DNA from: Antedon mediterranea
Lineage: Eukaryota > Animalia > Echinodermata
Length of the DNA stretch: 64,000 nucleotides
NCBI RefSeq assembly: GCF_964355755.1
Contig: NC_092676.1
Location: forward strand, 26,616,871 to 26,680,870
Direction: 5' to 3'
Shown: positions 1,718 through 60,982 of the stretch, piece by piece
Position numbering within the stretch: the first letter of the stretch is position 1
Layout: each line of letters begins with the position of its first letter
Made by a program: the position numbers and the translations under genes
Notes under the pieces: generated by a model
Database searches by the model: none
What the model was told of the DNA's origin: nothing
Seen by the model: only the letters and a program-made list of their open reading frames with translations

Positions 1718-3430
1718 ATGGCTAGCAAGTATTTAAGTCTACTTGGAGATATAGATGAGAAAGTACTAGAATGTTCTATCTGTAATGGAAGGCTAGAAGA
1801 CCCAAAATCACTTAGCTGCATTCATAGTTTCTGTCTGAAGTGTTTGGAGAAATGGGTTCGTACCAATTGTGGCAAGCTAACATGCCCTATTTGTCGCAAA
1901 GAGTACCCAATACCAAAAGGAGGGCTTGAAAAACTTGCACCAAATACATTTCTTAACAACCTCTTGGAAACCATCAAACAACATGAAGAGAAATATGAGG
2001 CTAAAGGGACTGCCTTGCTGTGTGCCTCTCATGCTAAACCATTAGAAATGTATTGTACAAAATGTAAAGTACCAATATGCATAGAATGCACTGAAATGGA
2101 ACATGCCGCAGGAACAGGAAAACATGAACTAATTAACATTGTTACAGCATTTAATACGTTTAAGGAAACCTCAGAAAAATTGAAGAAAGCTGCCAATGAA
2201 TCCATGAGAAAAACAGAAAATGTACTCAAAGTAATCACAAAGAATGCTAAAGAACTAGAAGAAAGTAAAGAGGCAAGTCTCACAGATATCAATAACCAAG
2301 TTCAAGAAATGGTAAAAGTAATCCAGAAAAAAGGAGAAGAAATGAGAAAAAAAGTTAAAGCAAATTATATGGAGGAAAAGAAAGTCAATGATGTACAAAT
2401 TACAAATTTAACAAAAATAATCAAAGAATTAAAAACAATTGTGAGTTCCTTAAGTCAGTTAATAATGAGTGAGCCAGCAATTGCTATGAAATCAAGTGAG
2501 ATTGCATTAAAGAAAATGATGGATGAAATTAATAAATCTGAAAAAATCAAGCAAAAGGAGAGCAGACAAATTAACTTCTTCAGAAACAAACATCCAATTG
2601 ATTTTTTGAAAGAAAATGACATTGGCAATTTGGAATTCACACTTCACTTCACACTTCCTATCAAAGTAGATGGTAAGCCTACAGGAGTAGCAAAGTGTGA
2701 TGATGATTGCTTGCTGGTTTCATTTAACACAAATGAAATTCACAAGTACAACCAATCAGGAGAAAGTATACGCAAGATTACACTACCAGAAGATGTGATG
2801 GTTTACAGAATGTACAGAATGAAGAATGGCAACATAGCATTCAGTGATGACAGTAATAAATGCATTAAAGTATGTGATATGAATGGTCATGTGATCAAAT
2901 CCATTGCTAAGAATGCATTAAAGAGAACAATAAAGAATCCATTTGGTATTCACATAGATGAGGCAACTAATGTTATATATGTAGCAGATGGAGACAATGG
3001 ATGTGTGTTCATGTTTGACATTAATAGTGGTAAGCAGTTGAAAAAGATAGGATCACAAAATGAAGAACATGGATACACTGATGTTGCACTTACAAAAACT
3101 GGTAAAGTACTTGTATCAGATGCAGGACACAATCAAGTATTATTGTATGATGACAATGACAAGTCAATGAAAGTACTCATCAATAGAGGATATGAAGATG
3201 GTAAGGTGTGGTACCCATATGGAGTTGTAGTTGATGAGGATGATAACATCATCATTGCAAGTAACAACAAACTACAACTATTCAGTAGTGATGGACATTT
3301 TATCAAAAGAATTGATCAACAAGAAGATGGAATTAAGTCACCAGAGCAGTTATGTATCATTTCTCATAACCAATGTATGGTTGCTGTAGCAAACTACTTT
3401 GACAACACGATCAAATCATTTAATTATTAA
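1718..3430 (+). CDS. TRIM-NHL copy 1, intact (570 aa): RING C3HC4, B-box2, coiled coil, NHL propeller; TRIM2/3/56/71-like E3 ligase
   Basis: RING CSIC...CIHSFCLKC...CPIC; B-box CASH...YCTKCKVPICIEC...H...H; K/E-rich heptads; NHL repeats (PTGVA, PFGIHID, PYGVVVD). Acceptor ttgcag lies 1 nt before the ATG. Confidence 0.93.
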   Translation: MASKYLSLLGDIDEKVLECSICNGRLEDPKSLSCIHSFCLKCLEKWVRTNCGKLTCPICRKEYPIPKGGLEKLAPNTFLNNLLETIKQHEEKYEAKGTALLCASHAKPLEMYCTKCKVPICIECTEMEHAAGTGKHELINIVTAFNTFKETSEKLKKAANESMRKTENVLKVITKNAKELEESKEASLTDINNQVQEMVKVIQKKGEEMRKKVKANYMEEKKVNDVQITNLTKIIKELKTIVSSLSQLIMSEPAIAMKSSEIALKKMMDEINKSEKIKQKESRQINFFRNKHPIDFLKENDIGNLEFTLHFTLPIKVDGKPTGVAKCDDDCLLVSFNTNEIHKYNQSGESIRKITLPEDVMVYRMYRMKNGNIAFSDDSNKCIKVCDMNGHVIKSIAKNALKRTIKNPFGIHIDEATNVIYVADGDNGCVFMFDINSGKQLKKIGSQNEEHGYTDVALTKTGKVLVSDAGHNQVLLYDDNDKSMKVLINRGYEDGKVWYPYGVVVDEDDNIIIASNNKLQLFSSDGHFIKRIDQQEDGIKSPEQLCIISHNQCMVAVANYFDNTIKSFNY

Positions 3431-4483
3431 TGTGTAAAAAGAAACACAGTTGAATGAAAGATCAATTACATTAAATCAAAATCATTAATTAGTTTATTAA
3501 TAATTTATTGTCTTAATTACACAAAGTTCAACATTTAAAAACAATCTTCAAATAAATTGGAAAGATTTGTTTAAAATAATATTCAAAATAACAAAACTTC
3601 TGATGGAATAATGCCTTGTATCATTTTAACTATTGTATATATACTATAATTGTGTCATCAAAAATAAATGTTTCTTGAGTTTTGTAAATTTTAATACTGT
3701 TGTAGAAATGCTGTAAAAGCTTAAACACAGATATTAATGAAGAAATTATTTGATATATAGAAGATAAGTCACTCTGTTTATGTAGGCATTTGAAGGGACT
3801 ATACATTGTGTATACAACTTGTTTGAGCAGTTTTAATCTCATCTTTTATTTGAACGACGGTTATACACAAATACATACATGTTTTGGGAAACACTTCCCA
3901 TCAGTGTAAAGCTATATTACATGGTGCGTTTATTTGTACTCATTTTCACCGGTATTTAAATAGTATTTTTAGAATAAGCCTAATTTGAATTATTGTATAT
4001 GTTATACTTACAGGCTAAGGCATATATATATGTTTAGTATTTTTAGAATAAAACCAATTTTAATTATTGTATATAATATGTAGACTTGCAGGCAAAGGCA
4101 GTTTTTGTTTTTCTAGTTTTAAATCATTATACAACATTATTCTTATTTTATCATCATTTTAAGCATAGATGTCTATGGTAATAATGGAAGTAGATTGTAC
4201 TTTAATAAAGTGATCACATACATTTTTAAAGCAAATGTCAGACTAGTTTTCGCCCTGAAATCAAATGTATACTGTAATTAATTTGAGTATTTTGAGTTCA
4301 TGTTATAAATAGCATCTATTTCAAATTAGAAAACACTTTGCATTGATCCGAATGTAAATATAGAACATTGTTGTCAAATCATCGGATACCAAGAGAGCAT
4401 ATTCTGATCACACAAGTGGTCATTAAATAGAGACCCACCTTGAACTATCAGTATTAGAGTAAATTAAATTTAGATTTATTTAC

Positions 4484-5288
4484 CACCTCCAGTGAAATTA
4501 TTTCCGTAATTTGCATCTCCTCCGCTCGGGGCATTACCAGCTTTTGCGCTATAGCGCCCTCCAGGTGGATGGTACACTCCACGAGCTCCTCGCTGTTTAT
4601 TGCCACCGCCTACTGTTGCTTTTTTAGCAGGTCCTGACTCAGAAAATGTGATTGGGGTGATGTTACCTCTCTTTACACTAGAATAACACAAAATAAAATT
4701 GAATCTAAATATATAAATGTCTTTAATTATGTGTGACTAATAATGTCTACACTATCAAACTAGTTTGACAAAAAAAAGTGTGATGTGCCCAAATATGGTA
4801 GTGATGATGTCATCATGTCTATATATGGGCACATCACATTTTTTTGGTCAAATAATATTTGATAATGTAGACAGAGCTTAAATTATGAGACACAATTTGT
4901 TCATTGTCATGCAAATGTTAAAACACCAAAAAAAGTTAATATATTATTATTTCATATTAGGCAATTATATTCACATACTTTTGTTGTTGTTGTGTTTGTT
5001 CTGTTGTAGCTTTCTGGATCGGTTTCCATGACAATGTAATGATGCATCCGTAGCCTGGTGGGTTACTTAACAAGTCCTAGAGTAAACAAAATAATGAATA
5101 TTTAGTATTTTATCCTTAATTTAACAAAAAATATTGGTTGTTATCTTAAGAGCGACAACTTTGATCTTATTTTTTTTTATTTATTTTTTTTATTCTCGTC
5201 AGATTTCAATACATCTCCTGTTTTATCTCGCAGGTCTGCCCTCAGTTGTTTCATGTAAACTTGGTTACCACGTGCAAAATACTGTAAT
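4484..5288 (-). pseudogene. API5: API5 copy C, 3' exons (5288-~5133 LQYFARG, 5076-~4979 DL..NPPGY, 4677-4484 SVKRG...YHPPGGRYS), degraded
   Basis: Matches the API5 C-terminus (RLQYFARG...KIKVVALKIT; TLSWKP; YxPPxGxYS). The LQYF exon has a T-rich insertion and has lost its donor. The terminal exon and the KNVHST/EYMPLPP exons are absent. Confidence 0.85.
4741..4880. mobile_element. MITE (GCTCTGTCTACAC TIR family), degenerate left end
   Basis: gtctacactatcaaac...tgtgatgtgccc...gggcacatcaca...gtagacagagc forms an imperfect palindrome; same family as 30460-30639. Confidence 0.65.
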
Positions 5289-6263: not shown

Positions 6264-7924
6264 ATGGCTAGCAAGAATTTAAGTCTACTTGGAGATATAG
6301 ATGAGAAAGTACTAGAATATGCTATCTGTAATGGAAGGCTAGAAGACCCAAAATCATTTAGCTGTCATCATACCTTCTGTCTGAAATGTTTGAAGAATTG
6401 GGTTCAAACCAATCATGGCAAGCTAACATGTCCGAATTGTCGCAAAGAATACTCTATTCCAGTATTCTTAACAACCTCTTGGAAACCATCAAACAACATG
6501 AAAAAAAAGAAGATGTTAAAGGCACTGCCTCTTTGTGCACCTCTCATGCTAAACCATTACAGATGTATTGCACAAAATGTAAAGTACCAATATGCATAGA
6601 ATGCACTGCAATGGAACATGCCGCAGGAGATGGAAAACATGAACTAATTAACATTGTAACAGCATTTAATACGTTTAAGGAAACCTCAGAAGACTTAAAG
6701 AAAGCTGCCAATGAATCCATAAAAAAAACAGAAAATGTACTTAAAGTAGTCACAAAGAATGCTAAAGAACTAGAAGAAAGTAAAGAGGCAAGTCTCACAG
6801 ATATTGATAACCAAGTTCAAGAAATGGTAAAAGTAATCCAGAAAAAAGGAGAAGAAATGAGAAAAAAAGTTAAAGCAAATTATATGGAGGAAAAGAAAGT
6901 CAATGATGTACAAATTACAAATTTAACAAAAATCATCTCTGAATTAAACACAAGTGTGAGTTCCCTAAATCAGTTACTAATGAGTGAGCCAGCAATGGCT
7001 TTGAAATCAAGTGAGATTGTATTAAATACAATGATGGATGAAATTAATAAATCTGAAGAAACCAAGCAAAAGGACAGCAGACAAATTAACTTCATCAGAA
7101 ACAAAAAACCAATTGATTTACTGAAAGAGAATGACATTGGAAATGTTCTATTCAAACCACTTCCTATCAAAGTAAAGGGTAACCCTTTTGGAGTAGTAAA
7201 GTGTGATGATGATTGCTTGCTGGTTTCATTTTGGACAAATGAAATTCATAAGTACAAACTATCAGGAGAATGTATAAGCAAGATTACACTACCAAGAGGT
7301 GTGGAAGTTAGCAGAATGTACAGAATGAAGAATGGCAACATAGCATTCAGTGATGTTGGTAATAAATGCATTCAAGTATGTAATATGAATGGTCATGTCA
7401 TCAAATCCATTGGTAAGGGTGTATTGAAATATCCATGTGGTATTCACATAGATGAGGCAACTAATGTTATATATGTAGCAGATGGAAGAAATGGATGTGT
7501 GTTCATGTTTGACATTAATAGTGGTAAGATGTTGAAGAAGATAGGTTCACAAAATGAAAAATATGGATACTCTAATGTTACACTTACAAAAACTGGTAAA
7601 GTACTTGCAACAGATAGAGGTAATCATCAAGTATTATTGTATGATGACAAGGACAAGTCAATGAAAGTACTCATCAATGAAGGAGTTGAAGATGGTAAGG
7701 TGATGATGCCACGTGGGGTTGTAGTTGATGAGGATGATAACATCATCATAGCAAGTGACAGCAAACTACAACTATTCAGTAGTGATGGACAATTTATCAA
7801 AAGAATTGATAAACAAGAAGATGGAATTAGTGTACCAAAGCAATTTTGTATTATTTCTGATAACTCATGTATGGTTGCTTTAGCAAACTACCTCATCAAG
7901 ACGATCAAAATATTTAATTATTAA
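6264..7924 (+). pseudogene. TRIM-NHL copy 2, frameshifted just after the RING
   Basis: 31-nt deletion at ~6464 relative to paralogs (GGLEKLAPNT missing) and first RING Cys replaced by Tyr (LEYAIC). B-box, coiled coil and NHL remain open in ORF 6386-7924. Confidence 0.88.
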
Positions 7925-7960: not shown

Positions 7961-9154
7961 CTAGATTTAATTCGTTACTATGATGGTTATTTATATGCAT
8001 TGATTTAAATAAAGATAACTGATTTTTAAATTATTATTTCGTTTCGTCTCCCAAGGTGAGACTCGATCTCGGTACCTTGAATGCTGTAGACATGAGCACA
8101 GACCACCGAGCCATATACAACTGACTAAAAGTTGTAGAAATATTTCTCTGTGTATTTACTATGCAGTAACCACTTTGGTGAAGATAGATTATTACATAAC
8201 GCAATGAATCATAATTTTTTACTATGATGATATCTTTAAAAATTAAAAAAAATGATGCACTGTCAAAGTATATACTTTTAACTTTAATATATGAATATTT
8301 TAAAGAAGAAGGTTAATGTTAAGTTTGTTATTTCGGTCCAAGAAAATGTCATAGTTTGTTCGATTGTTGAAATTGAAATTGTTTTATTTAATATGCAATT
8401 AATGATGATGTAATCAACTTTTTTTCTCTTAATTTCATAATAAATCATACATATGATACATACACTTTAAGAAAATGAAATGAAAAATAGGGTTTCCCGA
8501 GCATTCTGACGATTTATGTTAATTTTAAAATGTAGCATATTTTCACCATTTTGGTAAATTACACGTGCGTAGCCTGTTAATTTTAACGTGCTCGTATAAC
8601 ATGGTTTCAAATTGAAAAGTGAATAAAATATGATGAAATTGCTAAAGATATGTTGTTAAACAGAAATCAGGCAAAAAGAGTGCGCATTACAGTTTAACGC
8701 GATGTACGCATGCAAGATTCTGCGCACTCATAGCAATTTTTAAACACTTGAAATTGCCTGAAACGTACTCTAATTTCATCAAAAATAATTTTTGACAATT
8801 TTGAAAATGGTAAGCGCGCGTACGCATGCGTTATGTGCGCTACGCACATATTTTTATTGTCATATGATGAAATATGACCTGAAATTTATGAGTACCAAAT
8901 TTGGTTTAATTATAATACATGCTTGTGAAGATATGATTACAAACGTGATTTCGTTAAATCATGCGTAGACTGCCTAATTTTTTATTGCACACCGTGAAAA
9001 GATAACGACATCGATTCCTGGCAATTAGGAATATACTCTGAAAAATTGACGTAGCTAGATGAAACTGATCTCAAGATAATTGAGGGACAAAATAGTGCTT
9101 AGGAAAGAACAAATATGGAGAAATAAATTATGCATGATAATGCATATAACCTAA
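7961..9154 (-). mobile_element. Non-autonomous Helitron/Helentron-like element
   Basis: Minus-strand 3' end ...acgaattaaatCTAG matches the ends at 22490-22509 and 24950-24968. It interrupts the conserved TRIM 3' flank (aagaaacaaag...gatcaattac) and has a CpG-rich interior. Confidence 0.6.
8047..8115 (-). pseudogene. Degenerate tRNA-like / SINE-head sequence inside the Helentron-like element
   Basis: Minus strand has TGGCTCGGTGG (A-box-like) and GAGATCGAGTCTC (B-box/T-arm-like) at tRNA spacing; no clean cloverleaf. Confidence 0.35.
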
Positions 9155-10518
9155 TTAACGATCAATTACATTAAATCAATATTATCTATTAATTAGTTTA
9201 TTTTTTAATTTATTGTGTTAATTACACAAAGCTTAACATTTAAAACAATCTTCAAATAAATTGGAAAGATTTGTTTAAAATAAAACTCAAAACAAGAAAA
9301 TGTTTATTTTTAAAATTTCATATGAGGTCAAACTTGGTTGAATGACTTGTATTTTCTAACTTGAATATCATTTGAACTAATGTTATAATTATGTCATCAT
9401 TGAAAAATAAATGGTTTTTTTAGTTTTGTAAATGTTAACATTGATGTAGAAATACTGTAAAAGCTAAGTAAACACAGACATGAAGAAATCATCTGAAATA
9501 GAAGATAATAAGTCACACTGTTTATGTAGGCGTTTGAAGGGACAAGACATTGTGTATACAACTTGTTTGAGCAGTTTTAATCTCGTCTTTTATTTGAACA
9601 ACGACGATTATAAACGAATACATGCACATGTTTTGGGAAACACTTCCCATAATCAGTGTAAAGCTATATTACATGGTGCGTTTATTTGTACTCATTTTTC
9701 TTATTTTATCAAGTAGGCATAGATGTCTATGGTAATGGAAGTAGATTGTACCTTAATAAAGTGATCACATACTGTATATAGTAATACTGTCTACTTAGTA
9801 ATGTTAATTTTTAAAAAAGCAAATGTCAGACTAGTTTTCTCCTTGAATTCCAGGGCCTAAAAGTAGTTAAAAAAGGGCTGAACTTAATTTGATGTCCTAT
9901 CTTTTGCATTACAATTTTTTTAATTTAGAGGGGGCCCAGGCCGACTGGGGCCACCTTGAATCCGGCTCCTGGCTGTTTCTATCTTGTTGAAATTGTATTG
10001 ATTATTTATGAGTGACAATAACTTGAGTGCTTGAATAAATGCTTCAGTTGTGTTTTGCAATACTGATTTTGAAGGCGTAACACCTTGTTCAAACAGATGA
10101 ATGCTTTGATAACATGATGATCATGAAAGTTTCAAAGTGCAAAAACCAACTTTATTCGATTACTGTAAATGATTGGTTTTAATTCCTGAAACTATCATTT
10201 GAGCTGGGAAAAAGGTATTTAACATAAAAAATGATATTAGATTTATTTAGTTGTATTAGTTCAGTATAGCTGTAGTCTCCTATGCAAACAGCTAGTCAAG
10301 ATAAACACTAATAGATTCTTGTTGTGTTAACATGGATTGTTGGCTTGGATATTAGTAACTAGATTATTTTTCCTACAATTAAATGCCAAGCAGAGATGTA
10401 TTGTACAGGCATCCGATGATCACATGACAAGACGTAACCAGTATAGTAAAACCCAATTGATAATGGGTGGATAAATAAATAAATTGCATTTTTTTAATAA
10501 AATAAAATCTTTTGCAGA

Positions 10519-12225
10519 ATGGCTAGCAAGGATTTAAATCTACTTGGAGATATAAATGATAAACTAGAATGTTCTATCTGTAATGGAAGGCTAGAAGACC
10601 CAAAATCACTTGGCTGCCTTCATAGTTTCTGTCTGAAGTGTTTGGAAAATTGGGTTCAAACCAACAATGGACAGCTAATATGTCCTATTTGTCGCAAAGA
10701 GTATCCCATACCAGTAGGAGGGCTTCAAAAGCTTGCCCCAAATACAATTCTTAACAACCTCTTGGAAACCATCAAACAACATGAAGAGAAAGATGAGGCT
10801 AAAAGCACTGCTTCTTTGTGCGTCTCTCATGCTAAACCATTAGAAATGTATTGCACAAAATGTAAAGTACCAATATGCATAGAATGCACTGAAATGGAAC
10901 ATGCCGCAGGAGATGGAAAACATGAACTAATTAACATTGTAACAGCATTTAATACGTTTAAGGAAACATCAGAAGACTTGAAGAAAGCTGCCAATGTATT
11001 CATAAGAAAAACAGAAAATGTACTTAAAGTAGTCACAAAGAATGCTAAAGAACTAGAAGAAAGTAAAGCGGCAAGTCTCAAAGATGTTGATAACCAAGTT
11101 CAAGAAATAGTACAAGTAATCAAGAAAAAAGGAGATGAAATGAGAACAAAAGTTGAAGCAAATTATATGGAGAAAAAGGAAGTCAATGATGTACAAATTA
11201 CAAATTTAACAAAAATAATCAAAGAATTAAACACAATTGTGAGTTCCTTAAATCAGTTACTAATGAGTGAGCCATCAACTGCTATGAAATCAAATGAGAT
11301 TATATTAAATAAAATGATGGATGAAATCAACAAATCTGAAGAAATCAAGCAAAAGGACAGCAGACAAATTAACTTCATCAGAAACGAACAGCTAATTGAT
11401 TTATTAAAAAAAAATGACATTGGAAATGTTGTATTCAAACCACTTCTTATCAAAGTAGAGGGGGAGCCTTGTGGAGTAGCAATGTGTAATGATGATTGTT
11501 TGCTGGTTTCAATTAACACAAATGAAATTCACAAGTACAACAAATCAGGAGAAAGTATAAGCAAGATTACACTACCAGAAAGTGTTATGGTTTATAGAAT
11601 GTACAGAATGAAGAATGGCAACATAGCATTCATTGATTGGGGTAATGAATGCATTAAAGTATGTGATATGAATGGTCATGTGATCAAATCCATTGGTAAG
11701 AAGAGTCCATTCAAGAGAACAATAAAGGATCCAAGTGGTATTCACATAGATGAGGCAACTAATGTTATATATGTAACAGATTGGGACATGAAATGTGTGT
11801 TTATGTTTGACATAATTAATGGTAAGCTGTTGAAGAAGATAGTATCACAAAATGAAGAACAAAGATACACTGATGTTGCACTTACAAAAACTGGTAAAGT
11901 ACTTGTAACAGATGCAGGAAAGCATCAAGTATTATTGTATGATGACAAGGACAAGTCACTGAAAGTACTCATCAATGAAGGAGTTGAAGATGGTAATGTG
12001 AGGTACCCATATGGAGTTGTAGTTGATGAGGATGATAACATCATCATAGCAAGTTACCACAAACTACAACTATTCAGTAGTGATGGACATTTTATCAAAA
12101 GAATTGATCAACAAGAAGATGGAATTATAAGTACACCACCTCAGTTATGTATCATTTCTCATAACCCATGTATGGTGGCTGTAGCACATAGGGGTGACAA
12201 CACAATCAAAATATTTAATTATTAA
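10519..12225 (+). CDS. TRIM-NHL copy 3, intact (568 aa)
   Basis: Full RING, B-box, coiled coil and NHL ORF; acceptor tttgcag 1 nt before the ATG. Confidence 0.93.
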   Translation: MASKDLNLLGDINDKLECSICNGRLEDPKSLGCLHSFCLKCLENWVQTNNGQLICPICRKEYPIPVGGLQKLAPNTILNNLLETIKQHEEKDEAKSTASLCVSHAKPLEMYCTKCKVPICIECTEMEHAAGDGKHELINIVTAFNTFKETSEDLKKAANVFIRKTENVLKVVTKNAKELEESKAASLKDVDNQVQEIVQVIKKKGDEMRTKVEANYMEKKEVNDVQITNLTKIIKELNTIVSSLNQLLMSEPSTAMKSNEIILNKMMDEINKSEEIKQKDSRQINFIRNEQLIDLLKKNDIGNVVFKPLLIKVEGEPCGVAMCNDDCLLVSINTNEIHKYNKSGESISKITLPESVMVYRMYRMKNGNIAFIDWGNECIKVCDMNGHVIKSIGKKSPFKRTIKDPSGIHIDEATNVIYVTDWDMKCVFMFDIINGKLLKKIVSQNEEQRYTDVALTKTGKVLVTDAGKHQVLLYDDKDKSLKVLINEGVEDGNVRYPYGVVVDEDDNIIIASYHKLQLFSSDGHFIKRIDQQEDGIISTPPQLCIISHNPCMVAVAHRGDNTIKIFNY

Positions 12226-12395
12226 TGTATAAAATATAACATTGCATTAAAGAAACAAAGTTAAATCAAAGATCAATTACATTAATCCAAATTATTTATT
12301 AATTAGTTTATTATCTTAAGTACACAAATCTTACAATTTAAAAAGAATCATTAATTAAAAATAAAACCTAAAATAACCAATATTATTTTTAAAAT

Positions 12396-14120
12396 TAGAA
12401 TGTTCTATCTGTAATGGAAGACTAGAAGACCCAAAATCACTTAGCTGCCTTCATAGTTTCTGTCTGAATGAAGTGTTTGAAGAATTGGGTTCGAACCAAT
12501 GGCAAGCTAACATGCCCTATTTGCCGCAAAGAGTATCCTATTCCATTAGGAGGGCTTCAAAAACTTGCACCAAATACAGTTCTTAACAACCTCTTGGAAA
12601 CCATCAAACAACATGAACAGAAAGATAAGGCTAAAGGCACTGCCTCTCTGTGTACCTCTCATGCTAAACCATTAGAGATGTATTGCACAAAATGTAAAGT
12701 ACCAATATGCATAGAATGCACTGAAATGGAACATGCCGCAGGAGATGGAAAACATGAACTAATTAACATTGTAACAGCATTTAATACGTTTAAGGAAACC
12801 TCAGAAGACTTAAAGAAAGCTGCCAATGAATCCATCAGAAAAACAGAAAATGTACTTAAAGTAGTCACAAAGAATGCTAAAGAACTAGAAGAAAGTAAAG
12901 AGGCAAGTCTCACAGATATTGATAACCAAGTTCAAGAAATGGTAAAAGTAATCAAGAGAAAAGGAGAAGAAATGAGAAAAAAAGTTGAAGCAAATTATAT
13001 AGAGGAAAAGGAAGTCAATGATGTACAAATTACAAATTTAACAACAATCATCTCTGAATTAAACACAAGTGTGAGTTCCCTAAATCAGTTACTAATGAGT
13101 GAGCAATCAACTGCTATGAAATCAAGTGAGAGTGTATTAAATACACTAATGGATGAAATTAATATATCTCAAGAAATCAAGCAAAAGGACAGCAGACAAA
13201 TTAACTTCATCAGAAACAAACAGCCAATTGATTTACTGAAAGAAAATGACATTGGAAATGTTACATTCAAACCAGTTATTGGTATTAAAGGGGATATGAT
13301 GCCCAGGGAAGTATCAAAGTGTGATGATGACATTGGAAATGTTGTAATCAAACCACTTTCTCTCAAAGTAGAGACTGGGCCTTGGGGAGTAGCAAAGTGT
13401 GATGATGATTGCTTGATGGTTTCATTTCGCACAAATAAAATTCACAAGTACAAACTATCCGGAGAATGTATAAGCAAGATTACACTACCAAGAGGTGTGG
13501 AAGTTAACAGTATGTACAGAATGAAGAATGGCAACATAGCATTCAGTGATGTCGGTAATAAATGCATTCAAGTATGTGATATGAATGGTCATGTGATCAA
13601 ATCCATTGGTAAGGGTGTATTGATGAATCCATGTGGTATTCACATAGATGAGGCAACTAATGTTATATATGTAGCAGATGGAAACAATGGACGTGTGTTC
13701 ATGTTTGACATTAATAGTGGTAAGCAGGTGAAGAAGATAGGATCACAAAATGAAGAACATGTATACATTGATGTTGCACTTACAAAAACTGGTAAAGTAC
13801 TAGTAGCAGATGCAGGAAAGCATCAAGTATTATTGTATGACGACAAAGGCACATCAATGAAAGTACTCATCAATGAAGGAGTTGAAGATGGTAATGTGAG
13901 GTACCCATATGGAGTTGTAGTTGATGAGGATGATAACATCATCATGGGAAGTATAAACAAAATACAACTATTCAGGAGTGATGGACATTTTATCAAAAGA
14001 ATCGATCAACAAAAAGATGGAATTAGTTTACCACGTCAGTTATGTATCATATCTCATAACCCATGCATGGTTGCTATAGCAAATAGGGGTTTCAAATCAA
14101 TCAAAATATTCAATTATTGA
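12396..14120 (+). pseudogene. TRIM-NHL copy 4, 5'-truncated (lost acceptor and first ~16 codons) with a 4-nt duplication in the RING; 550-aa ORF from 12468
   Basis: Coding homology starts abruptly at 12396 (tagaatgttct). Comparison with 53666/55863 shows ~2.2 kb deleted. ctgaATGaag versus ctgaag in copy 10. Confidence 0.85.
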
Positions 14121-22509: not shown

Positions 22510-22534
22510 TTTAACTCTTGTATTTTTAGAGTAA

Positions 22535-35020: not shown

Positions 35021-35112
35021 AAAGTAATAGTAATTGTTTTAAAGCAAATGTATAATTAAAGCATTTGAATTGATGTTTTTTGCAAACAGTTCTAATTGAA
35101 TGATTTATTTAA

Positions 35113-41840: not shown

Positions 41841-42993
41841 ATGGTACATTTCATACAATATAAATATCTCAAATATGTTGTTAAATATTTATGAACAACT
41901 TGACACAAAGAAATATTATTTGCACACAATGTAATTTGTTCCTGTGGTCTTGTAGGGTAAAAGCCAATTCAATTAATGATTCACATTTAGAATATAATAT
42001 CCACTGTGTATTAAATATGTATTTTGTTAAATGTTTGACCATTGTCTGTACAATTAGTTTACTTTGTGTCTAGTTGATCCAATTCGAGTCTCACAACCAA
42101 CATCGTACTCACAATTACGAGTCAGAATGGAATATTATGATCACCGAGTCGACGCTGGATCCAATCACGTCCAAAACACTTGGCTGGATCTAAAGTGGTA
42201 TTGTGATTTTACACAGGAGTTGATGTTGATAGGAGAACAGCCCATCTTTTATACATTCTATCATTTTTGTTGTTTGTTTACAGTATGTGATGTGTTTCAA
42301 AACTAGCATGCTTTTCAAACATGTCTAAGCTAGCGTAATGATACATAAATCTATAAATTGAGTTCAACAATAGTATGTATACATTTGTGTTTGCAACACA
42401 GTCTAGTAAAAGTATCATCAGTACTAAAGTAGTTCCTTAAAAAAACTAAATTCTCAACAATCTACCAGTAACATAGGTGAAAATTTTAACATTTTGTACA
42501 TACAAAAGAAAACTTAATTGAAATACTGAAATGTTTTGGTAAATTGATTCAGTATAAAAACATCAGCTTGTAAATGATATAGCTAAATCAAAGCAACATT
42601 GTGAATTTTTTTGTTAAAAATGTCGGCTGATTTTAATTACAAAACCATAACAATTTACAATTGGTTAACTACAGAGAATAAATTCATTTTTACATTATTT
42701 TCTGGGTAATAACACTAACAATAATCAAGGGATACTGTATTCAATTTTAGAAAAGGCAATAAAAAAGGTATTTTTAGTTTACATCAAAATAAGTCAACAA
42801 CTGAAGATCGTTACTTATTAGGAGAACCAGATAACAATACATTTTTACTGGAAATACCAAATCTATTTTACTTGAAAAAGTTACCAATACTTTATATAAA
42901 TCTGTCGCCTGTATTACTGTGAACCTTAACCTACAGAGTGACTGGCAATAGTAGGATCTGTAAATATTCTCATAACAGTGACTGTTGCGACAT

Positions 42994-46634: not shown

Positions 46635-48333
46635 ATGGCTAGCAACGACATTAGTCTACTTGGAGATATAGATGATAAAGTTCTAGAATGTTCTATCTGT
46701 AATGAAAGGTTAGAAGATCCAAAATCACTTAGCTGCCTTCATACCTTCTGTCTGAAGTGTTTGGAGAATTGGGTTCAAACCAATCGTGGCAAGCTAAAAT
46801 GCCCTATTTGTCGGAAAAAGTATCCCATACCAAAAGGAGGGCTTCAAAAACTTGCCCCAAACACAATTCTAAACAACCTCTTGGAAACCATCAAACAGCA
46901 TGAAGTGAAAGATGAGGCCAAAGGCACTGCCTCTCTGTGTGCCTCTCATGCTCAACCATTGAAAATGTATTGTACAAAATGTAAAGTACCAATATGCATA
47001 GAATGCACTGAAATGGAACATGCTGCAGGAGATGGAAAACATGAACTAATTAACATTGTAACAGCATTTAATACATTTAAGGAAACATCAGAAGACTTGA
47101 AGAAAGCTGCCAATGAATCCATAAAAAAAACAGAAAATGTACTTAAAGTAGTTACAAAGAATTCTAAAGAACTAGAAGAAAGTAAAGAGGCAAAGTCTTA
47201 CAGATATTGATGACCAAGTTCAAGAAATGGTACAAGTAATCCAGAAAAAAGGAGAAGAAATGAGAAAAAAAGTTGAAACAAATTATGTGGAGGAAAAGAA
47301 AGTTAATGACGTACAAACTACAAATTTAACAAAAATCATTTCTGAATTAAACACAAGGGTGAGTTTCCTAAATCAGTTACTAATGAGTGAGCCAGCAATT
47401 GCTATGAGATCAAGTGAGATTGTATTAAATACACTGATGGATGAAATTAATAAATCTGAAGAAATCAAGCAAAAGGACAGCAAACAAATTAAATTTATCA
47501 GAAACAAACAACCAATTGATTTACTGAAAGAAAATGACATTGGAAATGTTATATTCAAACCATTTACTATCGAAGTAGAGGGTAAGCCTACAGGAGTAGC
47601 AAAATGTGAGGATGATTGCTTCCTGGTTTCATTTCTCACAAATAAAATTCACAAGTACAACCAATCAGGAAAATGTACAAGCAAGATTACACTACCAGAA
47701 GGTGTGGAAGTTAACAGAATGTACAAAATGAAGAATGGCAACATAGCATTCAGTGATTATAGCATTACTACATGCATTCAAGTATGTGATATGAATGGTC
47801 ATGTGATCAAATCCATTGGTAAGGGTGTATTGATGGATCCATATGGTATTCACATAGATGAGGCAGCTAATGTTATATATGTAGCAGATTGGGACATAGG
47901 ATGTGTGTTCATGTTTGACATTAATAGTGGTAAGCAGTTGAAGAAGATAGGATCACAAAATGAAGAACATGAATACACTAGTGTTGCACTTACAAAAACT
48001 GGTAAAGTACTTGTAGCAGATAGAGGGCAGCATCAAGTATTATTGTATGATGACAAGGACAAGTCAATGAAAGTACTCATCAATGAAGGGTGGGAAGATG
48101 GTAAGGTGATGGGACCAAGTGGAGTTGTAGTTGATGAGGAGGATGATAACATCATCGTAGCAAGTATTGAAAAACTACAACTATTCAGTAGTGATGGACA
48201 TTTTATCAAAAGAATTGATAAACAAGAAGATGGAATTAGTTATCCACGTCAGTTATGTATCATTTCATATAACCCATGTATGATTGCTTTAGCAAATTAC
48301 GATGACAGCACAATCCAAACATTCAATTATTGA
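46635..48333 (+). pseudogene. TRIM-NHL copy 8, single +1 frameshift (could be a sequencing error)
   Basis: gaggcaAagtctt at ~47192 versus gaggcaagtctt in paralogs; NHL protein sequence identical to copy 7. Confidence 0.8.
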
Positions 48334-48811
48334 TGTATAAAATATATCATTACATTAAAGAAACACAGTTGAATGAAAGATCAAGTACATTAAAAATTAT
48401 CTATTAATTAGTTTATTACACAAAGCTTAACATTTAAAAACAATCTTCAAATAAATTGGAAATTTTAAAATAAAGCTGAAAATAACCAATATCTATTCAT
48501 ATGAGGCGAAACTTATGATTTTGTATTTTCTAACTTTAATATCATTTGAACTAATGTTATAATTACAGTATGTCATCATTGAAAAATAAATGGATTTTTT
48601 TTTTGTGAATATATTTAGTATTTTTAGAATAAGCCTAATTTGAATTATTGTACAGTATATTATAATAATATATGTTACACTTGTAGGCAAAGGCAGTTTT
48701 TGTTTTAGTTTTCCTAGTTTTAAATCATTAAATACAACATTATTCTTATTTCATCAAGTAATCATACTGTAGATACCTATGGTATTTAAATGAAAGTAGA
48801 TTGTACCTTAA

Positions 48812-51160
48812 TAAAGTGACCACATACTATATATAGTAATCTGTACTACCTAGTATAATATAAAGTGATCACATACTGTGTATAGTAATCTGTACTACCT
48901 AGTATAATATAAAGTGACCACATACTGTATATAGTAATCTGTACTACCTAGTATAAAATAAAGTGACCACATACTGTATATAGTAATCTGTACTACCTAG
49001 TATAATATAAAGTGATCACATACTGTATATAGTAATCTGTACTACCTAGTATAATATAAAGTGACCACATACTGTATATAGTAATCTGTACTACCTAGTA
49101 TAATATAAAGTGATCACATACTGTACATAGTAATCTGTACTACCTAGTATAATATAAAGTGACCACATACTGTATATAGTAATCTGTACTACCTAGTATA
49201 ATATAAAGTGATCATATACTGTATATAGTAATCTGTACTACCTAGTATAATATAAAGTGACCACATACTGTATATAGTAATCTGTACTACCTAGTATAAT
49301 ATAAAGTGATCACATACTGTATATAGTAATCTGTACTACCTAGTATAATATAAAGTGACCACATACTGTATATAATAATCTGTACTACCTAGTATAATAT
49401 AAAGTGATAACATACTGTATATAGTAATCTGTACTACCTAGTATAATATAAAGTGATCACATACTGTATATAGTAATCTGTACTACCTAGTATAATATAA
49501 AGTGACCACATACTGTATATAGTAATCTGTACTACCTAGTATAATATAAAGTGACCACATACTGTATATAGTAATCTGTACTACCTATTATAATATAAAG
49601 TGATCACATACTGTACATAGTAATCTGTACTACCTAGTATAATATAAAGTGATCACATACTGTATATAGTAATCTGTACTACCTAGTATAATATAAAGTG
49701 ACCACATACTGTATATAGTAATCTGTACTACCTAGTATAATATAAAGTGATCACATACTGTACATAGTAATCTGTACTACCTAGTATAATATAAAGTGAT
49801 CACATACTGTATATAGTAATCTGTACTACCTAGTATAATATAAAGTGACCACATACTGTATATAGTAATCTGTACTACCTAGTATAATATAAAGTGATCA
49901 CATACTGTACATAGTAATCTGTACTACCTAGTATAATATAAAGTGATCACATACTGTATATAGTAATCTGTACTACCTAATATAATATAAAGTGACCACA
50001 TACTGTATATAGTAATCTATACTACCTAGTATAATATAAAGTGATCACATACTGTACATAGTAATCTGTACTACCTAGTATAATATAAAGTGACCACATA
50101 CTGTATATAGTAATCTGTACTACCTAGTATAATATAAAGTGACCACATACTGTATATAGTAATCTGTACTACCTAGTATAATATAAAGTGATCATATACT
50201 GTATATAGTAATCTGTACTACCTAGTATAATATAAAGTGACCACATACTGTATATAGTAATCTGTACTACCTAGTATAATATAAAGTGATCATATACTGT
50301 ATATAGTAATCTGTACTACCTAGTATAATATAAAGTGATCACATACTGTACATAGTAATCTGTACTACCTAGTATAATATAAAGTGATCACATACTATAT
50401 ATAGTAATCTGTACTACCTAGTATAAAATAAAGTGACCACATACTGTACATAGTAATCTGTACTACCTAGTATAATATAAAGTGACCACATACTGTATAT
50501 AGTAATCTGTACTACCTAGTATAATATAAAGTGACCACATACTGTATATAGTAATCTGTACTACCTAGTATAATATAAAGTGACCACATACTGTATATAG
50601 TAATCTGTACTACCTAGTATAATATAAAGTGACCACATACTGTATATAGTAATCTGTACTACCTAGTATAATATAAAGTGATCATATACTGTGTATAGTA
50701 ATCTGTACTACCTAGTATAATATAAAGTGATCACATACTGTATATAGTAATCTGTACTACCTAGTATAATATAAAGTGATCACATACTGTATATAGTAAT
50801 CTGTACTACCTAGTATAATATAAAGTGATCACATACTGTATATAGTAATCTGTACTACCTAGTATAATATAAAGTGATCACATACTGTATATAGTAATCT
50901 GTACTACCTAGTATAATATAAAGTGATCACATACTGTATATAGTAATCTGTACTACAGTACCCAGTATAAAATAAAGTGATCACATACTGTACATAGTAA
51001 TCTGTACTACCTAGTATAATATAAAGTGATCACATACTGTATATAGTAATCTGTACTACCTAGTATAATATAAAGTGATCACATACTGTATATAGTAATC
51101 TGTACTACCTAGTATAATATAAAGTGATCACATACTGTGTATAGTAATCTGTACTACCTA
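48812..51160. repeat. 49-bp minisatellite, ~48 units
   Basis: Same unit as 34444-35020, with interspersed variants (gatc/gacc, gtat/gtac/gtgt). Confidence 0.97.
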
Positions 51161-51802: not shown

Positions 51803-53495
51803 ATGGCTAGCAAGGATTTAAATCTACTTGGAGATATAAATGATAAACTAGAATGTTCTATCTGTAATGGAAGGCTAGAAGACCCAAAATCACTTGGCTG
51901 CCTTCATAGTTTCTGTCTGAAGTGTTCAAACCAACAATGGACAGCTAATATGTCCTATTTGTCGCAAAGAGTATCCCATACCAGTAGGAGGGCTTCAAAA
52001 GCTTGCCCCAAATACAATTCTTAACAACCTCTTGGAAACCATCAAACAACATGAAGAGAAAGATGAGGTTAAAAGCACTGCTTCTTTGTGCGTCTCTCAT
52101 GCTAAACCATTAGAAATGTATTGCACAAAATGTAAAGTACCAATATGCATAGAATGCACTGCAATGGAACATGCTGCAGGAGATGGAAAACATGAACTAG
52201 TTAACATTGTTACAGCATTTAATATGTTTAAGGAAACATCAGAAGAATTGAAGAAAGCTGCCAATGTATTCATAAGAAAAACAGAAAATGTACTTAAAGT
52301 AGTCACAAAGAATGCTAAAGAACTAGAAGAAAGTAAAGAGGCAAGTCTCAAAGATGTTGATAACCAAGTTCAAGAAATGGTACAAGTAATCAAGAAAAAA
52401 GGAGATGAAATGAGAACAAAAGTTGAAGCAAATTATATGGAGAAAAAGGAAGTCAATGATGTACAAATTACAAATTTAACAAAAATAATCAAAGAATTAA
52501 ACACAATTGTGAGTTCCTTAAATCAGTTACTAATGAGTGAGCCATCAACTGCTATGAAATCAAATGAGATTATATTAAATAAAATGATGGATGAAATCAA
52601 CAAATCTGAAGAAATCAAGCAAAAGGACAGCAGACAAATTAACTTCATCAGAAACAAACAGCTAATTGATTTATTGAAAAAAAATGACATTGGAAATGTT
52701 GTATTCAAACCACTTCTTATCAAAGTAGAGGGGGAGCCTTGTGGAGTAGCAATGTGTAATGATGATTGTTTGCTGGTTTCAATTAACACAAATGAAATTC
52801 ACAAGTACAACAAATCAGGAGAATGTATAAGCAAGATTACACTACCAGAAAGTGTTATGGTTTATAGAATGTACAGAATGAAGAATGGCAACATAGCATT
52901 CATTGATTGGGGTAATGAATGCATTAAAGTATGTGATATGAATGGTCATGTGATCAAATCCATTGGTAAGAAGAGTCCATTCAAGAGAACAATAAAGGAT
53001 CCAAGTGGTATTCACATAGATGAGGCAACTAATGTTATATATGTAACAGATTGGGACATGAAATGTGTGTTTATGTTTGACATAATTAATGGTAAGCTGT
53101 TGAAGAAGATAGTATCACAAAATGAAGAACAAAGATACACTGATGTTGCACTTACAAAAACTGGTAAAGTACTTGTAACAGATGCAGGAAAGCATCAAGT
53201 ATTATTGTATGATGACAAGGACAAGTCACTGAAAGTACTCATCAATGAAGGAGTTGAAGATGGTAATGTGAGGTACCCATATGGAGTTGTAGTTGATGAG
53301 GATGATAACATCATCATAGCAAGTTACCACAAACTACAACTATTCAGTAGTGATGGACATTTTATCAAAAGAATTGATCAACAAGAAGATGGAATTATAA
53401 GTACACCACCTCAGTTATGTATCATTTCTCATAACCCATGTATGGTGGCTGTAGCACATAGGGGTGACAACACAATCAAAATATTTAATTATTAA
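51803..53495 (+). pseudogene. TRIM-NHL copy 9 (recent duplicate of copy 3), 14-nt deletion in the RING
   Basis: aagtgt|tcaaac at ~51925 lacks ttggaaaattgggt; downstream frame open to ...KIFNY. Confidence 0.88.
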
Positions 53496-55812: not shown

Positions 55813-57585
55813 ATGGCTAGCAAGGATTTAAGTCTACTTGGAGATATAGATGAGAAAGTACTAGAATGTTCTATCTGTAATGGAAGACTAGAAGACCCAA
55901 AATCACTTAGCTGCCTTCATAGTTTCTGTCTGAAGTGTTTGAAGAATTGGGTTCGAACCAATGGCAAGCTAACATGCCCTATTTGCCGCAAAGAGTATCC
56001 TATTCCATTAGGAGGGCTTCAAAAACTTGCACCAAATACAGTTCTTAACAACCTCTTGGAAACCATCAAACAACATGAACAGAAAGATAAGGCTAAAGGC
56101 ACTGCCTCTCTGTGTACCTCTCATGCTAAACCATTAGAGATGTATTGCACAAAATGTAAAGTACCAATATGTATAGAATGCACTGCAATGGAACATGCCG
56201 CAGGAGATGGAAAACATGAACTAATTAACATTGTTACAGCATTTAATACATTTAAGGAAACATCAGAAGACTTAAAGAAAGCTGCCAATGAATCCATCAG
56301 AAAAACAGAAAATGTACTTAAAGTAGTCACAAAGAATGCTAAAGAACTAGAAGAAAGTAAAAAGGCAAGTCTCACAGATATTGATACCCAAGTTCAAGAA
56401 ATGGTACAAATAATCAAGAAAAAAGGAGAAGAAATGAGAAAAAAAGTTGAAGCAAATTATATGGAGGAAAAGAAAATCAATGATGTACAAATTACAAAGT
56501 TAACAAAATTCAACTCTCAATTAAACACAATTGTGAGTTTCCTAAATCAGTTACTAATGAGTGAGCAATCAACAGCTATGAAATCAAGTGAGAGTGTATT
56601 AAATACACTAATGGATGAAATTAATATATCTCAAGAAATCAAGCAAAAGGACAGCAGACAAATTAACTTCATCAGAAACAAACAGCCAATTGATTTACTG
56701 AAAGAAAATGACATTGGAAATGTTACATTCAAACCAGTTATTGGTATTAAAGAAGGGGATATGATGCCCAGGGAAGTATCAAAGTGTGATGATGACATTG
56801 GAAATGTTGTAATCAAACCACTTTCTCTCAAAGTAGAGACTGGGCCTTGGGGAGTAGCAAAGTGTGATGATGATTGCTTGATGGTTTCATTTCGCACAAA
56901 TAAAATTCACAAGTACAAACTATCCGGAGAATGTATAAGCAAGATTACACTACCAAGAGGTGTGGAAGTTAACAGTATGTACAGAATGAAGAATGGCAAC
57001 ATAGCATTCAGTGATGTCGGTAATAAATGCATTCAAGTATGTGATATGAATGGTCATGTAATCAAATCCATTGGTAAGGGTGTATTGATGAATCCATGTG
57101 GTATTCACATAGATGAGGCAACTAATGTTATATATGTAGCAGATGGAAACAATGGACGTGTGTTCATGTTTGACATTAATAGTGGTAAGCAGTTAAAGAA
57201 GATAGGATCACAAAATGAAGAACATGTATACATTGATGTTGCACTTACAAAAACTGGTAAAGTACTAGTAGCAGATGCAGGAAAGCATCAAGTATTATTG
57301 TATGACGACAAAGGCACATCAATGAAAGTACTCATCAATGAAGGAGTTGAAGATGGTAATGTGAGGTACCCATATGGAGTTGTAGTTGATGAGGATGATA
57401 ACATCATCATGGGAAGTATAAACAAAATACAACTATTCAGGAGTGATGGACATTTTATCAAAAGAATTGATCAACAAAAAGATGGAATTAGTTTACCACG
57501 TCAGTTATGTATCATATCTCATAACCCATGCATGGTTGCTATAGCAAATAGGGGTTTCAAATCAATCAAAATATTCAATTATTGA
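55813..57585 (+). CDS. TRIM-NHL copy 10, intact (590 aa), with a 28-aa internal duplication before the propeller
   Basis: Full RING, B-box, coiled coil and NHL ORF; acceptor tattgcag 1 nt before the ATG. Confidence 0.93.
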   Translation: MASKDLSLLGDIDEKVLECSICNGRLEDPKSLSCLHSFCLKCLKNWVRTNGKLTCPICRKEYPIPLGGLQKLAPNTVLNNLLETIKQHEQKDKAKGTASLCTSHAKPLEMYCTKCKVPICIECTAMEHAAGDGKHELINIVTAFNTFKETSEDLKKAANESIRKTENVLKVVTKNAKELEESKKASLTDIDTQVQEMVQIIKKKGEEMRKKVEANYMEEKKINDVQITKLTKFNSQLNTIVSFLNQLLMSEQSTAMKSSESVLNTLMDEINISQEIKQKDSRQINFIRNKQPIDLLKENDIGNVTFKPVIGIKEGDMMPREVSKCDDDIGNVVIKPLSLKVETGPWGVAKCDDDCLMVSFRTNKIHKYKLSGECISKITLPRGVEVNSMYRMKNGNIAFSDVGNKCIQVCDMNGHVIKSIGKGVLMNPCGIHIDEATNVIYVADGNNGRVFMFDINSGKQLKKIGSQNEEHVYIDVALTKTGKVLVADAGKHQVLLYDDKGTSMKVLINEGVEDGNVRYPYGVVVDEDDNIIMGSINKIQLFRSDGHFIKRIDQQKDGISLPRQLCIISHNPCMVAIANRGFKSIKIFNY

Positions 57586-59283: not shown

Positions 59284-60982
59284 ATGGCTAGCAAGTATTT
59301 AAATCTACTTGGAGATATAGATGAGAAAGTACTAGAATGTTCTATCTGTAATGGAAGGCTAGAAGACCCAAAATCACTTAGTTGTCATCATAGTTTCTGT
59401 CTGAATTGTTTGAAGAATTGGGTTCAAACCAGTCATGGCAAGCTAACGTGCCCTATTTGTCGCAAAGAGTATACAATACCAGTAGGAGGGCTTGAAAAAC
59501 TTGCACCAAATACAATTCTCAACAACCTCTTGGAAATCATCAAACAACATGAAAAGAAAGGTGAGGTTAAAGGCACTGCCTCTCTGTGCGCCTCTCATGC
59601 TCAACCATTAAAAATGTATTGTACAAAATGTAAAGTACCAATATGCATAGAATGCACTGCAATGGAACATACTGCAGGAGATGGAAAACATGAACTAATT
59701 AACATTGTTACAGCATTTAATACGTTTAAGGAAACATCAGAAGACTTAAAGAAAGCTGCCAATGAATCTATAAGAAAAACAGAAAATGTACTTAAAGTAG
59801 TCACAAAGAATGCTAAAGAACTAGAAGAAAGTAAAGAGGCAAGTCTTACAGATACCTGTATTGATAACCAAGTTCAAGAAATGATACAAGTAATCCAGAA
59901 AAAAGGAGAAGAAATGAGAAAAAAAAGTTGAAGCAAATTATATGGAGGAAAAGGAAGGTAATGACGTACAAATTACAAATTTAACAAAAATCATCTCTCA
60001 ATTAAACACAAGTGTGAGTTTCCTAAATCAGTTACTAATGAGTGAGCCAGCAATTGCTATGAGATCAAGTGAGAGTGTATTAAATACACTAATGGATGAA
60101 ATTAATGAATCTCAAGAAATCAAGCAAAAGGACAGCAGACAAATTACCTTCATCAGAAACAAACAGTCAATTGATTTACTGAAAGTTGGAAATGTTATAT
60201 TCAAACCACTTCCTATCAAAGTAGAGGCTAATCCTTGGGGAGTAGCAAAGTGTGATGATGATGATTGCTTGCTGGTTTCATTTTTCACAAATGAAATTCA
60301 CAAGTACAACCAATCAGGAGAATGTACAAGCAAGATTACACTACAAGAAGGTGTGAAAGTTTACAGAATGTACAAAATGAAGAATGGCAACATAGCATTC
60401 AGTGATGGAAGAAATAAATGCATTCAAGTATGCGATATGAATGGTCATGTGATTAAATCCATTGGTAAGGGTGTATTGATGCATCCATGGGGTATTCACA
60501 TAGATGAGGCAACTAATGTTATATATGTAGCAGATTCGCACATTACATGTGGGTACGTGTTTGACATAATTAATGGTCAGCTGTTGAAGAAGATAGGAAC
60601 ACAAAAGGAATCACATTATTATGGATACACTGATGTTGCACTTACAAAAACTGGTAAAGTACTTATAGCACATGCAGTAGGTAATCAAGTATTATTGTAT
60701 GATGACAAGGACAAGTTAATAAAAGTACTCATCAAAAGAGGTGATGAAGATGGTAAGGTGAGGTACCCACGTGGAGTTGTAGTTGATGATGAGGATGATA
60801 ACATCATCATAGCAAATAAACATAGACTACAACTATTCAGTAGTGATGGACATTTTATCAAAAGAATTGATAAACAAGATGAAATTAGTTATCCACAGCA
60901 GTTATGTATCATTTCTTATAACCCATGTATGATTGCTGTAGTAAATTGGAGGGACACCAAAATCAAAATATTCAATTATTAA
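59284..60982 (+). pseudogene. TRIM-NHL copy 11, +1 frameshift in an A run (could be a sequencing error)
   Basis: atgagaaaaaaaagttga at ~59914-59931; ORFs 59284-59931 and 59942-60982. Confidence 0.8.

Follow-up and report, generated by a model that had tools for sequence, protein, structure and literature searches.

We analysed a 64-kb stretch of Antedon mediterranea DNA (the window), whose plus strand carries, between positions 1718 and 60982, 11 full or near-full tandem copies of a RING/B-box/coiled-coil/NHL gene, all on the same strand and each with a single coding exon. The original prediction had counted 11 copies, and these were all found, but only four of them in the window (c1, c3, c6 and c10) are intact, and c4 lacks its 5' end. 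We count eight independent propellers rather than 11 because those of c3 and c9, c4 and c10, and c7 and c8 are essentially identical. All eight distinct propellers are represented within the array, while intact genes make up only 4 of the 11. Nine frameshifts are spread over the other seven copies, eight of them upstream of the propeller, and no in-frame premature stop was found in any of the 11. Gene death in the array is frequent. The twin blocks are either recent block duplications or uncollapsed haplotypes.

590 to 718, plus strand: relic propeller fragment of a further copy, blade 2-3 region, 129 bp (tblastn 62% to c1 residues 370-416, E 4e-11)
1709 to 1717 (c1), plus strand: TTGCAG(A/G), acceptor-like motif one base 5' of the ATG, in 10 of the 10 copies that have a start
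1718 to 3430, plus strand: c1, intact, 570 aa; RING 19-59, B-box 101-141, coiled coil 141-275
2645 to 3427, plus strand: six-bladed NHL of c1, residues 310-570
6264 to 7924, plus strand: c2; 31-nt deletion past the RING, near 6463; first RING Cys replaced; frame open from B-box to NHL
10519 to 12225, plus strand: c3, intact; propeller twin of c9
12392 to 14120, plus strand: c4, 5'-truncated, without start codon; +4 nt in the RING (12465); propeller twin of c10
within 12392 to 14120, plus strand: 72-nt in-frame duplication preceding blade 1 of c4
15801 to 17495, plus strand: c5; +2 nt in the RING (15874), +10 nt in blade 5 (17315)
19249 to 20931, plus strand: c6, intact
32271 to 33971, plus strand: c7; +2 nt (32495), +1 nt (32881); propeller identical to that of c8
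46635 to 48333, plus strand: c8; +1 nt in the coiled coil (47192)
51803 to 53495, plus strand: c9; 14-nt deletion in the RING (51923); twin of c3
55813 to 57585, plus strand: c10, intact, 590 aa; 75-nt in-frame duplication preceding blade 1
59284 to 60982, plus strand: c11; +1 A in the coiled coil, inside a run of A (59919), a lesion or a sequencing error

For the extra A of c11, contigs without the base exist, yet the paralogs also lack it, and a 6-nt insertion specific to c11 is uncovered in three of the four sequencing runs. The acceptor-like motif suggests that the genes likely have a 5' UTR intron, for which it would serve in splicing. The genes are presumably expressed; contigs of run X1, which we guessed to be RNA, also span intergenic and repeat DNA, and the run is therefore silent on expression.

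The RING matched PF00097 above cutoff in c1 and c10, and the single B-box matched PF00643 at residues 101-141. RING zinc ligands are intact in the four intact copies, whose products are therefore predicted E3 ligases. In the AlphaFold2 model (mean pLDDT 84.8, propeller 10-residue blocks 83-98), coiled-coil helices occupy residues 141-249 and 253-275, through which the proteins may dimerise and, as the original prediction supposed, might form heterodimers, and six blades can be read off the strand pattern. The propeller aligned with the NHL domains of Thin, TRIM2 and TRIM71 at TM 0.76-0.80, and the best matches by sequence and fold were Thin, TRIM2, TRIM71 and TRIM3 (Foldseek E 3e-18 to 1e-17; 19-24% identity). 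Among 12 Pfam families, no PRY or SPRY (B30.2) match was found in c1 and c10, and the Pfam filamin families matched neither protein. Weak filamin matches occur in longer crinoid relatives; those of about 720 aa have a first B-box and a filamin repeat that the window subfamily lacks. Every motif quoted in the original prediction is present in the alignment. Its P-x-G motif occurs in blades 1, 3 and 5, and as P-x-Q in blade 6, but is missing before blades 2 and 4.

Among the eight distinct copies, the B-box is invariant at 32 of 40 columns (mean identity 91%) and the proximal coiled coil at 43 of 58 (92%), bearing out their predicted near-invariance. The wider claim of a constant E3/dimerisation module was overstated because the distal coiled coil varies: its identity is 78%, compared with 76% for the whole NHL domain, with a pN/pS of 0.87, and the identity of the RING is 84%. 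The scaffold is therefore only partly constant, its distal coiled coil varying to the same average extent as the propeller. Purifying selection acts on the RING, B-box and proximal coiled coil. We rejected homogenisation as the source of this constancy, because the RING and B-box have a pS of 0.16-0.19, no lower than that of the NHL domain (0.12), and a pN/pS of 0.31-0.39. Positive selection in the N-terminal half was not accepted either, since its 2dlnL of 11.9 on one tree lies within the range produced by recombination only and fell to 5.7 with partitioned trees. An exact 50-nt contig from the proximal coiled coil reached depths of 732, 190 and 690 in runs X2-X4, against about 7-41 for long flank contigs; depth is not equivalent to copy number, so we gave these values no weight.

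We then fitted codon models to the 256 NHL codons of the eight distinct copies, leaving out c4, c7 and c9 as twins of c10, c8 and c3. Comparison of M2a with M1a gave a 2dlnL of 175.8, with an omega2 of 10.3 at 9.7% of sites. Values were similar in the F61 control (167.8), after removal of gap-adjacent columns (177.5) and for M8 versus M8a (172.7). They were lower with six per-blade partitions on their own trees (132.2), with multi-nucleotide hits allowed (87.8), with site-rate variation (56.0) and with the latter two combined (37.3, p=8e-9). The four intact copies alone gave 74.1, or 27.3 with multi-nucleotide hits. The dN/dS at the variable sites is thus far above 1 (about 10 at about 10% of propeller codons), as the original prediction required. 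Naive empirical Bayes (NEB) posteriors, calculated from the eight sequences with our own implementation rather than PAML or HyPhy, singled out 18 sites.

2675 to 3400, plus strand: selected codons (c1 numbering, NEB posterior >0.9) 320, 322, 337, 378, 425, 426, 440, 469, 471, 492, 499, 501, 516, 517, 541, 543, 560, 561

These sites fall in all six BC loops and in the DA loops before blades 1, 5 and 6. Faces were assigned from the secondary structure of the model and the loop definition given in the available part of PMC4015489, rather than from 3D distances. On this assignment the variable sites cluster as predicted: 16 of the 18 lie in top-face loops, which corresponds to 16 of 71 top-loop positions versus 0 of 50 bottom-loop positions (p=1.6e-4). 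With the codons partitioned a priori, top loops had an omega of 1.88 (omega=1 test 8.2, p=0.004) and bottom loops one of 0.41 (p=0.03). Variation is concentrated in the DA and BC loops, with a mean identity of 54% across top loops compared with 86% for bottom loops and 84% for strands. The strands are accordingly less variable than the top loops, but their supposed conservation is not matched by an omega of 0.92, which is indistinguishable from 1. On the propeller predicted by the model, positive selection is limited to a single face, that of the DA and BC loops.

The same pattern could arise without adaptive diversification if the array were mostly decaying, with loops that are unconstrained, locally hypermutable or spared gene conversion, and with recombination inflating the tests. 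Seven of 11 copies are broken, pS is raised in top loops (0.18 versus about 0.10), and recombination is detectable (PHI-like test, p=0.0005 for all informative sites and 0.15 for third positions). Simulation of recombination only put 10 of 18 runs above 6, showing that the test is inflated. Even so, neutral simulations with free recombination, which covered the effect of recombination alone, stayed at 0-26.2 in 18 of 18 runs, whereas the real data reached 172 when run through the same protocol. Bottom loops, no less loop-like in nature, hold none of the selected sites; the signal also persists under rate variation with multi-nucleotide hits and in the intact copies alone, and no copy carries an in-frame premature stop. 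We therefore regard this explanation as largely refuted already and highly improbable.

Positive selection is a sign of conflict and does not name the opponent. The substitutions had been described as rich in W, Y, F and R. The aromatic part of this held, W/Y/F accounting for 19 of the 85 distinct residues at selected sites versus 6 of the 199 from other loops (p=8e-7), but R alone was not significantly enriched there (p=0.17). One alternative is intragenomic conflict, in which the propellers would recognise RNA or proteins of transposons or other selfish elements, likely in the germline, with the same anatomy and arms race but another opponent. TRIM-NHL top faces bind RNA, according to the available part of PMC4015489, and the best fold matches of our model include RNA-bound LIN-41/TRIM71 and Brat. 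Aromatic enrichment is also compatible with base stacking, and in 6 of 11 copies a crude count assigns less negative charge to top than to bottom loops. However, the same part of PMC4015489 expects positive tops or positive patches in RNA-binding TRIM-NHL proteins, and crude charge, counted from residues, ranges from -12 to +3 in top loops (-2 to +4 at the 18 selected sites), being negative in two of the four intact copies and zero in one more. Nor do selected sites show an enrichment of basic residues (p=0.73). Overall, we consider a selfish-element opponent unlikely, though not negligibly so. We infer a pathogen-derived ligand. As to its chemical class, the aromatic-rich face and a crude charge that differs from copy to copy lead us to prefer proteins or mixed ligands to a single conserved RNA motif.

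Crinoid proteins (Antedon, up to 79% identical) are the closest named relatives. In the set of A. mediterranea proteins retrieved, the best identity was 76-81%, with no close counterpart. Window copies grouped with 14 A. mediterranea domains (support 1.0), while 57 of 62 Anneissia propellers formed their own clade apart from them (support 0.90); the family has expanded separately in the two crinoid genera. Entropy at the selected sites was 2.6 bits versus 1.0-1.1 elsewhere, both in 18 A. mediterranea (p=2e-10) and in 36 Anneissia paralogs (p=7e-9). In the array, c5 and c11 have a common 5' flank and RING but different propellers; recombination exchanges N-terminal halves, and with them scaffolds, between copies.

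These comparisons bear on a further alternative, that the genes encode substrate adaptors which have diversified towards endogenous or symbiont-related targets (in proteostasis, stress or self/non-self), selected for new specificities once duplicated, with no ongoing arms race. Propeller tops are general interaction platforms in the available part of PMC4015489, and expansions of NHL-repeat and of B-box orthogroups are listed for merulinid corals, their function being unstated in the part of PMC11639872 available. Yet replacements recur at one small set of sites (up to seven residues among eight copies) across two clades that expanded separately, dead copies predominate, and close A. mediterranea counterparts were missing among the proteins retrieved. 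Recurrent turnover therefore fits better than stable subfunctions, and we find the adaptor explanation decidedly unlikely.

Our preferred reading, which we hold to be probable, is a repertoire, evolving by birth and death, of cytosolic E3 ligases that bind pathogens and would operate like TRIM5 or finTRIM proteins but with an NHL propeller. The tandem array would supply diversified propellers, each binding a different, fast-changing pathogen ligand via its top face; oligomerisation and ubiquitination would fall to the conserved RING/B-box/coiled coil. Our confidence is tempered because rate variation and multi-nucleotide hits cut the statistic from 176 to 37, top-loop pS is raised and seven copies are broken. 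An immune role for the family, like its ligand, is proposed purely by analogy; the genes likely constitute an inherited set of intracellular pathogen sensors or restriction factors.

[quoted passage not shown] Some members of this class have a filamin repeat before the propeller, not detected in c1 or c10. TRIM32 is not known to carry it either, so its absence is no bar to membership. Known members are few and conserved, whereas the family here is large and turns over fast, with a selected top face. Flies have three TRIM-NHL genes, worms four and mammals five, and characterised proteins are mostly regulators of endogenous RNA (PMC4015489, available part); human and mouse share their group 1 TRIM genes 1:1 (PMC2533329), and a primate screen found two selected sites in TRIM2, both outside known domains (PMC3845644).

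TRIM5alpha/TRIM22 and the fish finTRIM (ftr), btr and trim35/hltr genes (class IV) resemble the array in multigene expansion, in recombination and in positive selection on the (here predicted) ligand-binding loops of a C-terminal domain behind the RBCC; according to the available part of PMC3137616, the B30.2 domains of fish ftr/btr/trim35 genes show the same signature. They bind via B30.2/PRY-SPRY, however, while the array uses an NHL propeller in an invertebrate host, and B30.2 group 2 TRIMs are reported absent from invertebrates (PMC2533329). We take the resemblance as a functional analogy that implies no class membership. TRIM56 likewise combines RBCC with an NHL-like domain, on which its RNA binding and virus restriction depend (PMC11768893, available part), but has two B-boxes and a disordered linker and is described as one gene with isoforms, compared with one B-box and many genes here.

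In published surveys TRIM-NHL genes figure as a small, conserved group of RNA regulators, and rapid TRIM evolution driven by pathogens is assigned to the vertebrate B30.2 class; our literature search found no published account of such a variable TRIM-NHL array. A crinoid TRIM-NHL family with the same arms-race signature would be a candidate intracellular recognition system in invertebrates. The 18 one-face residues and four intact genes form a short list for direct ligand-specificity testing, and the propellers, as a natural library of 260-residue domains that differ in their loops, are also interesting as a scaffold for binders. More tentatively, marine invertebrates, reported to lack B30.2 TRIMs, may repeatedly have turned the NHL propeller into the basis of a TRIM5-like repertoire for intracellular recognition, encoded in the germline. 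The crinoid repertoire would comprise tens of members, with recombination re-pairing propellers with different RING/B-box/coiled-coil scaffolds and promoters, some RING-broken copies perhaps kept as RING-less partners or decoys, and the propeller clade fused to a death-effector domain. The Anneissia relative P0121 joins a propeller of the same clade to such a domain.

Searching the window by tblastn with the first gene as query revealed 11 copies on the same strand (c1 to c11, at 1718-60982). The coding part of every copy is a single uninterrupted exon, and TTGCAG(A/G) directly precedes the ATG in all ten copies that have a start codon, probably representing the acceptor of a 5' UTR intron. 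Pfam matched the encoded protein to RING, B-box and NHL, and an AlphaFold2 model of c1, built from a 71-sequence alignment (mean pLDDT 84.8, pTM 0.51), showed a long coiled coil and a six-bladed propeller whose best matches were the NHL domains of Thin, TRIM2, TRIM71 and TRIM3. Judged by architecture and predicted fold, the array proteins are TRIM-NHL proteins. The predicted count of 11 copies was thus recovered, but only c1, c3, c6 and c10 are intact. Nine frameshifts are spread over seven copies and c4 lacks its 5' end; no copy has an internal stop codon when translated across the breaks with an X at each. Since propellers were essentially identical within three pairs, we omitted c4, c7 and c9 and analysed eight copies. 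We also noticed an in-frame partial duplication of 72-75 nt in c4 (13282) and c10 (56744), which takes in the linker and the beginning of blade 1; a similar insert is present in the A. mediterranea protein P0010.

Among the eight distinct copies, mean identity (with pN/pS in parentheses) was as follows: RING 84% (0.39), B-box 91% (0.31), proximal coiled coil 92% (0.36), distal coiled coil 78% (0.87) and NHL 76% (1.13). The constant scaffold of the original prediction therefore comprises the B-box and proximal coil, and does not extend to the distal coil. This portion is maintained by purifying selection, because pS there (B-box 0.16, proximal coil 0.10) is not clearly below that of the propeller (0.12).

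We then fitted codon site models, implemented by us in Python, to 256 propeller codons of the eight copies. M2a was preferred over M1a (2dlnL 175.8; 167.8 with F61 frequencies, 177.5 after dropping gap-adjacent columns), placing 9.7% of sites at an omega of 10.3, and M8 over M8a (172.7); dN/dS at the variable sites exceeds 1, as had been expected. The statistic was 87.8 when double and triple nucleotide hits were allowed. Synonymous divergence was higher in the top loops, so a site-rate class was added to the model, giving 56.0, or 37.3 (p=8e-9) in combination with multi-hits, where 16 of the 18 selected sites were kept. Recombination is detectable in the array and inflates the test; six partitions, each with its own tree, gave 132.2, while neutral simulations with recombination only, drawing a fresh random tree each 16 or 43 codons, peaked at 26.2 (n=18) compared with 172 for the real data. 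The statistic was 74.1 for the four intact copies alone (27.3 with multi-hits) and 114.2 for the four broken ones. For the N-terminal half it fell from 11.9 to 5.7 once trees were partitioned, leaving no surviving signal. Of the nine frameshifts, all but one precede the propeller (about 0.04 in a one-sided binomial calculated by hand), a weak hint only, because second hits are not independent. That artefact or decay explains the pattern is very improbable; a real diversifying TRIM-NHL array is well supported.

Using the strands of the c1 model to assign loops, we found selected positions at 10/22 BC and 6/49 DA residues and at 0/50 AB/CD residues. The variable residues thus cluster on one face, in agreement with the original prediction; this top face, defined as the b-c and d-a loops, is where Brat binds RNA (PMC4015489, as excerpted). 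Two selected residues lie elsewhere: 543, in the first part of strand 6A adjoining its DA loop, and 440, on an outer strand, which was dropped under the site-rate class and multi-hits model. In partitions based on structure only, omega was 1.88 (top loops), 0.41 (bottom loops) and 0.92 (strands). The anticipated richness in W/Y/F/R held for W/Y/F, which are enriched at selected sites, but not for basic residues. With this composition and a crude top-loop charge ranging from -12 to +3 among copies, the ligand may be of more than one class. As readings of the array, diversification for endogenous substrates seems quite unlikely and conflict with transposons unlikely.

Close homologues were all crinoid. 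The best A. mediterranea protein match reached up to 79% identity at full length, Anneissia japonica showed about 45-59% propeller identity (60% in one partial match), and identity beyond crinoids fell to about 32% or less. In one homologue alignment, with 18 paralogs from A. mediterranea and 36 from Anneissia, the selected positions were far more variable than others. We also built a propeller tree from the 11 window copies, 82 crinoid domains and seven outgroups; in it, 57/62 Anneissia domains formed a separate clade, while the window copies fell among Antedon domains, none of which was a close counterpart. These paralog and domain counts are approximate, because they are 90% clusters drawn from a pair of word-limited searches, with isoforms and fused gene models among them. 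Both expansions diversified the same propeller face. The window subfamily no longer has the filamin repeat or the first B-box seen in the crinoid form of roughly 720 aa. In P0121, an Anneissia japonica protein, a death-effector domain (PF01335, E 7e-9) replaces the RBCC and is fused to a propeller of the clade under study; its N-terminal region is present twice, with no RING or B-box match. P0109 and P0111, from the same species, carry same-clade propellers behind mutually similar N-terminal regions without a Pfam match.

Excerpts of earlier work describe group 1 TRIM genes as conserved and invertebrates as lacking group 2, with one expansion of the filamin-related subgroup in worm and fly (PMC2533329), file TRIM-NHL proteins under subfamily C (PMC3503706), place both selected sites of TRIM2 beyond its domains (PMC3845644) and report expanded NHL-repeat and B-box orthogroups in merulinid corals (PMC11639872). 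The terms tripartite, NHL and immune were absent from the main text of PMC7351957, whose supplements may tabulate an expansion. Our search of mainly open-access literature found no prior description of an invertebrate TRIM-NHL family with selection on the top face. The window genes evolve like class IV TRIMs, yet do not belong to class IV. An immune function is likely. The array probably encodes a germline set of cytosolic binders, in which each propeller variant would act through its attached, predicted RING E3 and the repertoire would evolve through an arms race. We favour this reading because excerpts report a matching signature in fish B30.2 TRIM families (PMC3137616) and restriction by TRIM56 through an NHL-like domain (PMC11768893), and because of the Anneissia death-effector relative.

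The block c3-c4-c5 recurs as c9-c10-c11, and c7 as c8. Twin propellers differ at 0-3 bases per 200, whereas the N-terminal half has patches with up to 6-11 differences, suggestive of conversion by other paralogs. The RING is shared between c5 and c11, as are 96% of 601 upstream bases, but from the middle of the coiled coil on, 3' flank included, the two differ at 16-39 bases per 200, suggesting unequal crossover within the gene. The twin blocks could also be uncollapsed haplotypes. Other elements of the window were as follows:

590-718, small relic of a further copy (tblastn with the first gene)
4412-5139 and 8052-9143, interspersed repeats of very high depth in four sequencing runs
25088-30114, 37296-44558 and 61462-64000, non-coding blocks of 84-92% identity repeated between gene clusters
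34443-35021, 49-bp satellite, 11.8 copies, 96-97% matches, downstream of c7
35372-36199, minus strand, LINE-type reverse transcriptase fragment of 275 aa (PF00078 and PF09004), directly after the c7-side satellite
39789-39943, 16-bp-period minisatellite, with a reverse-oriented relative at 41677-41800
48811-51160, 49-bp satellite, 47.9 copies, 96-97% matches, downstream of c8

The sequence at about 4470-5130 is found again at 28830-29560 and 43270-43960, and the 49-bp unit also occurs in loose read-contig ends at 9756-9785, hinting at a satellite remnant upstream of c3.
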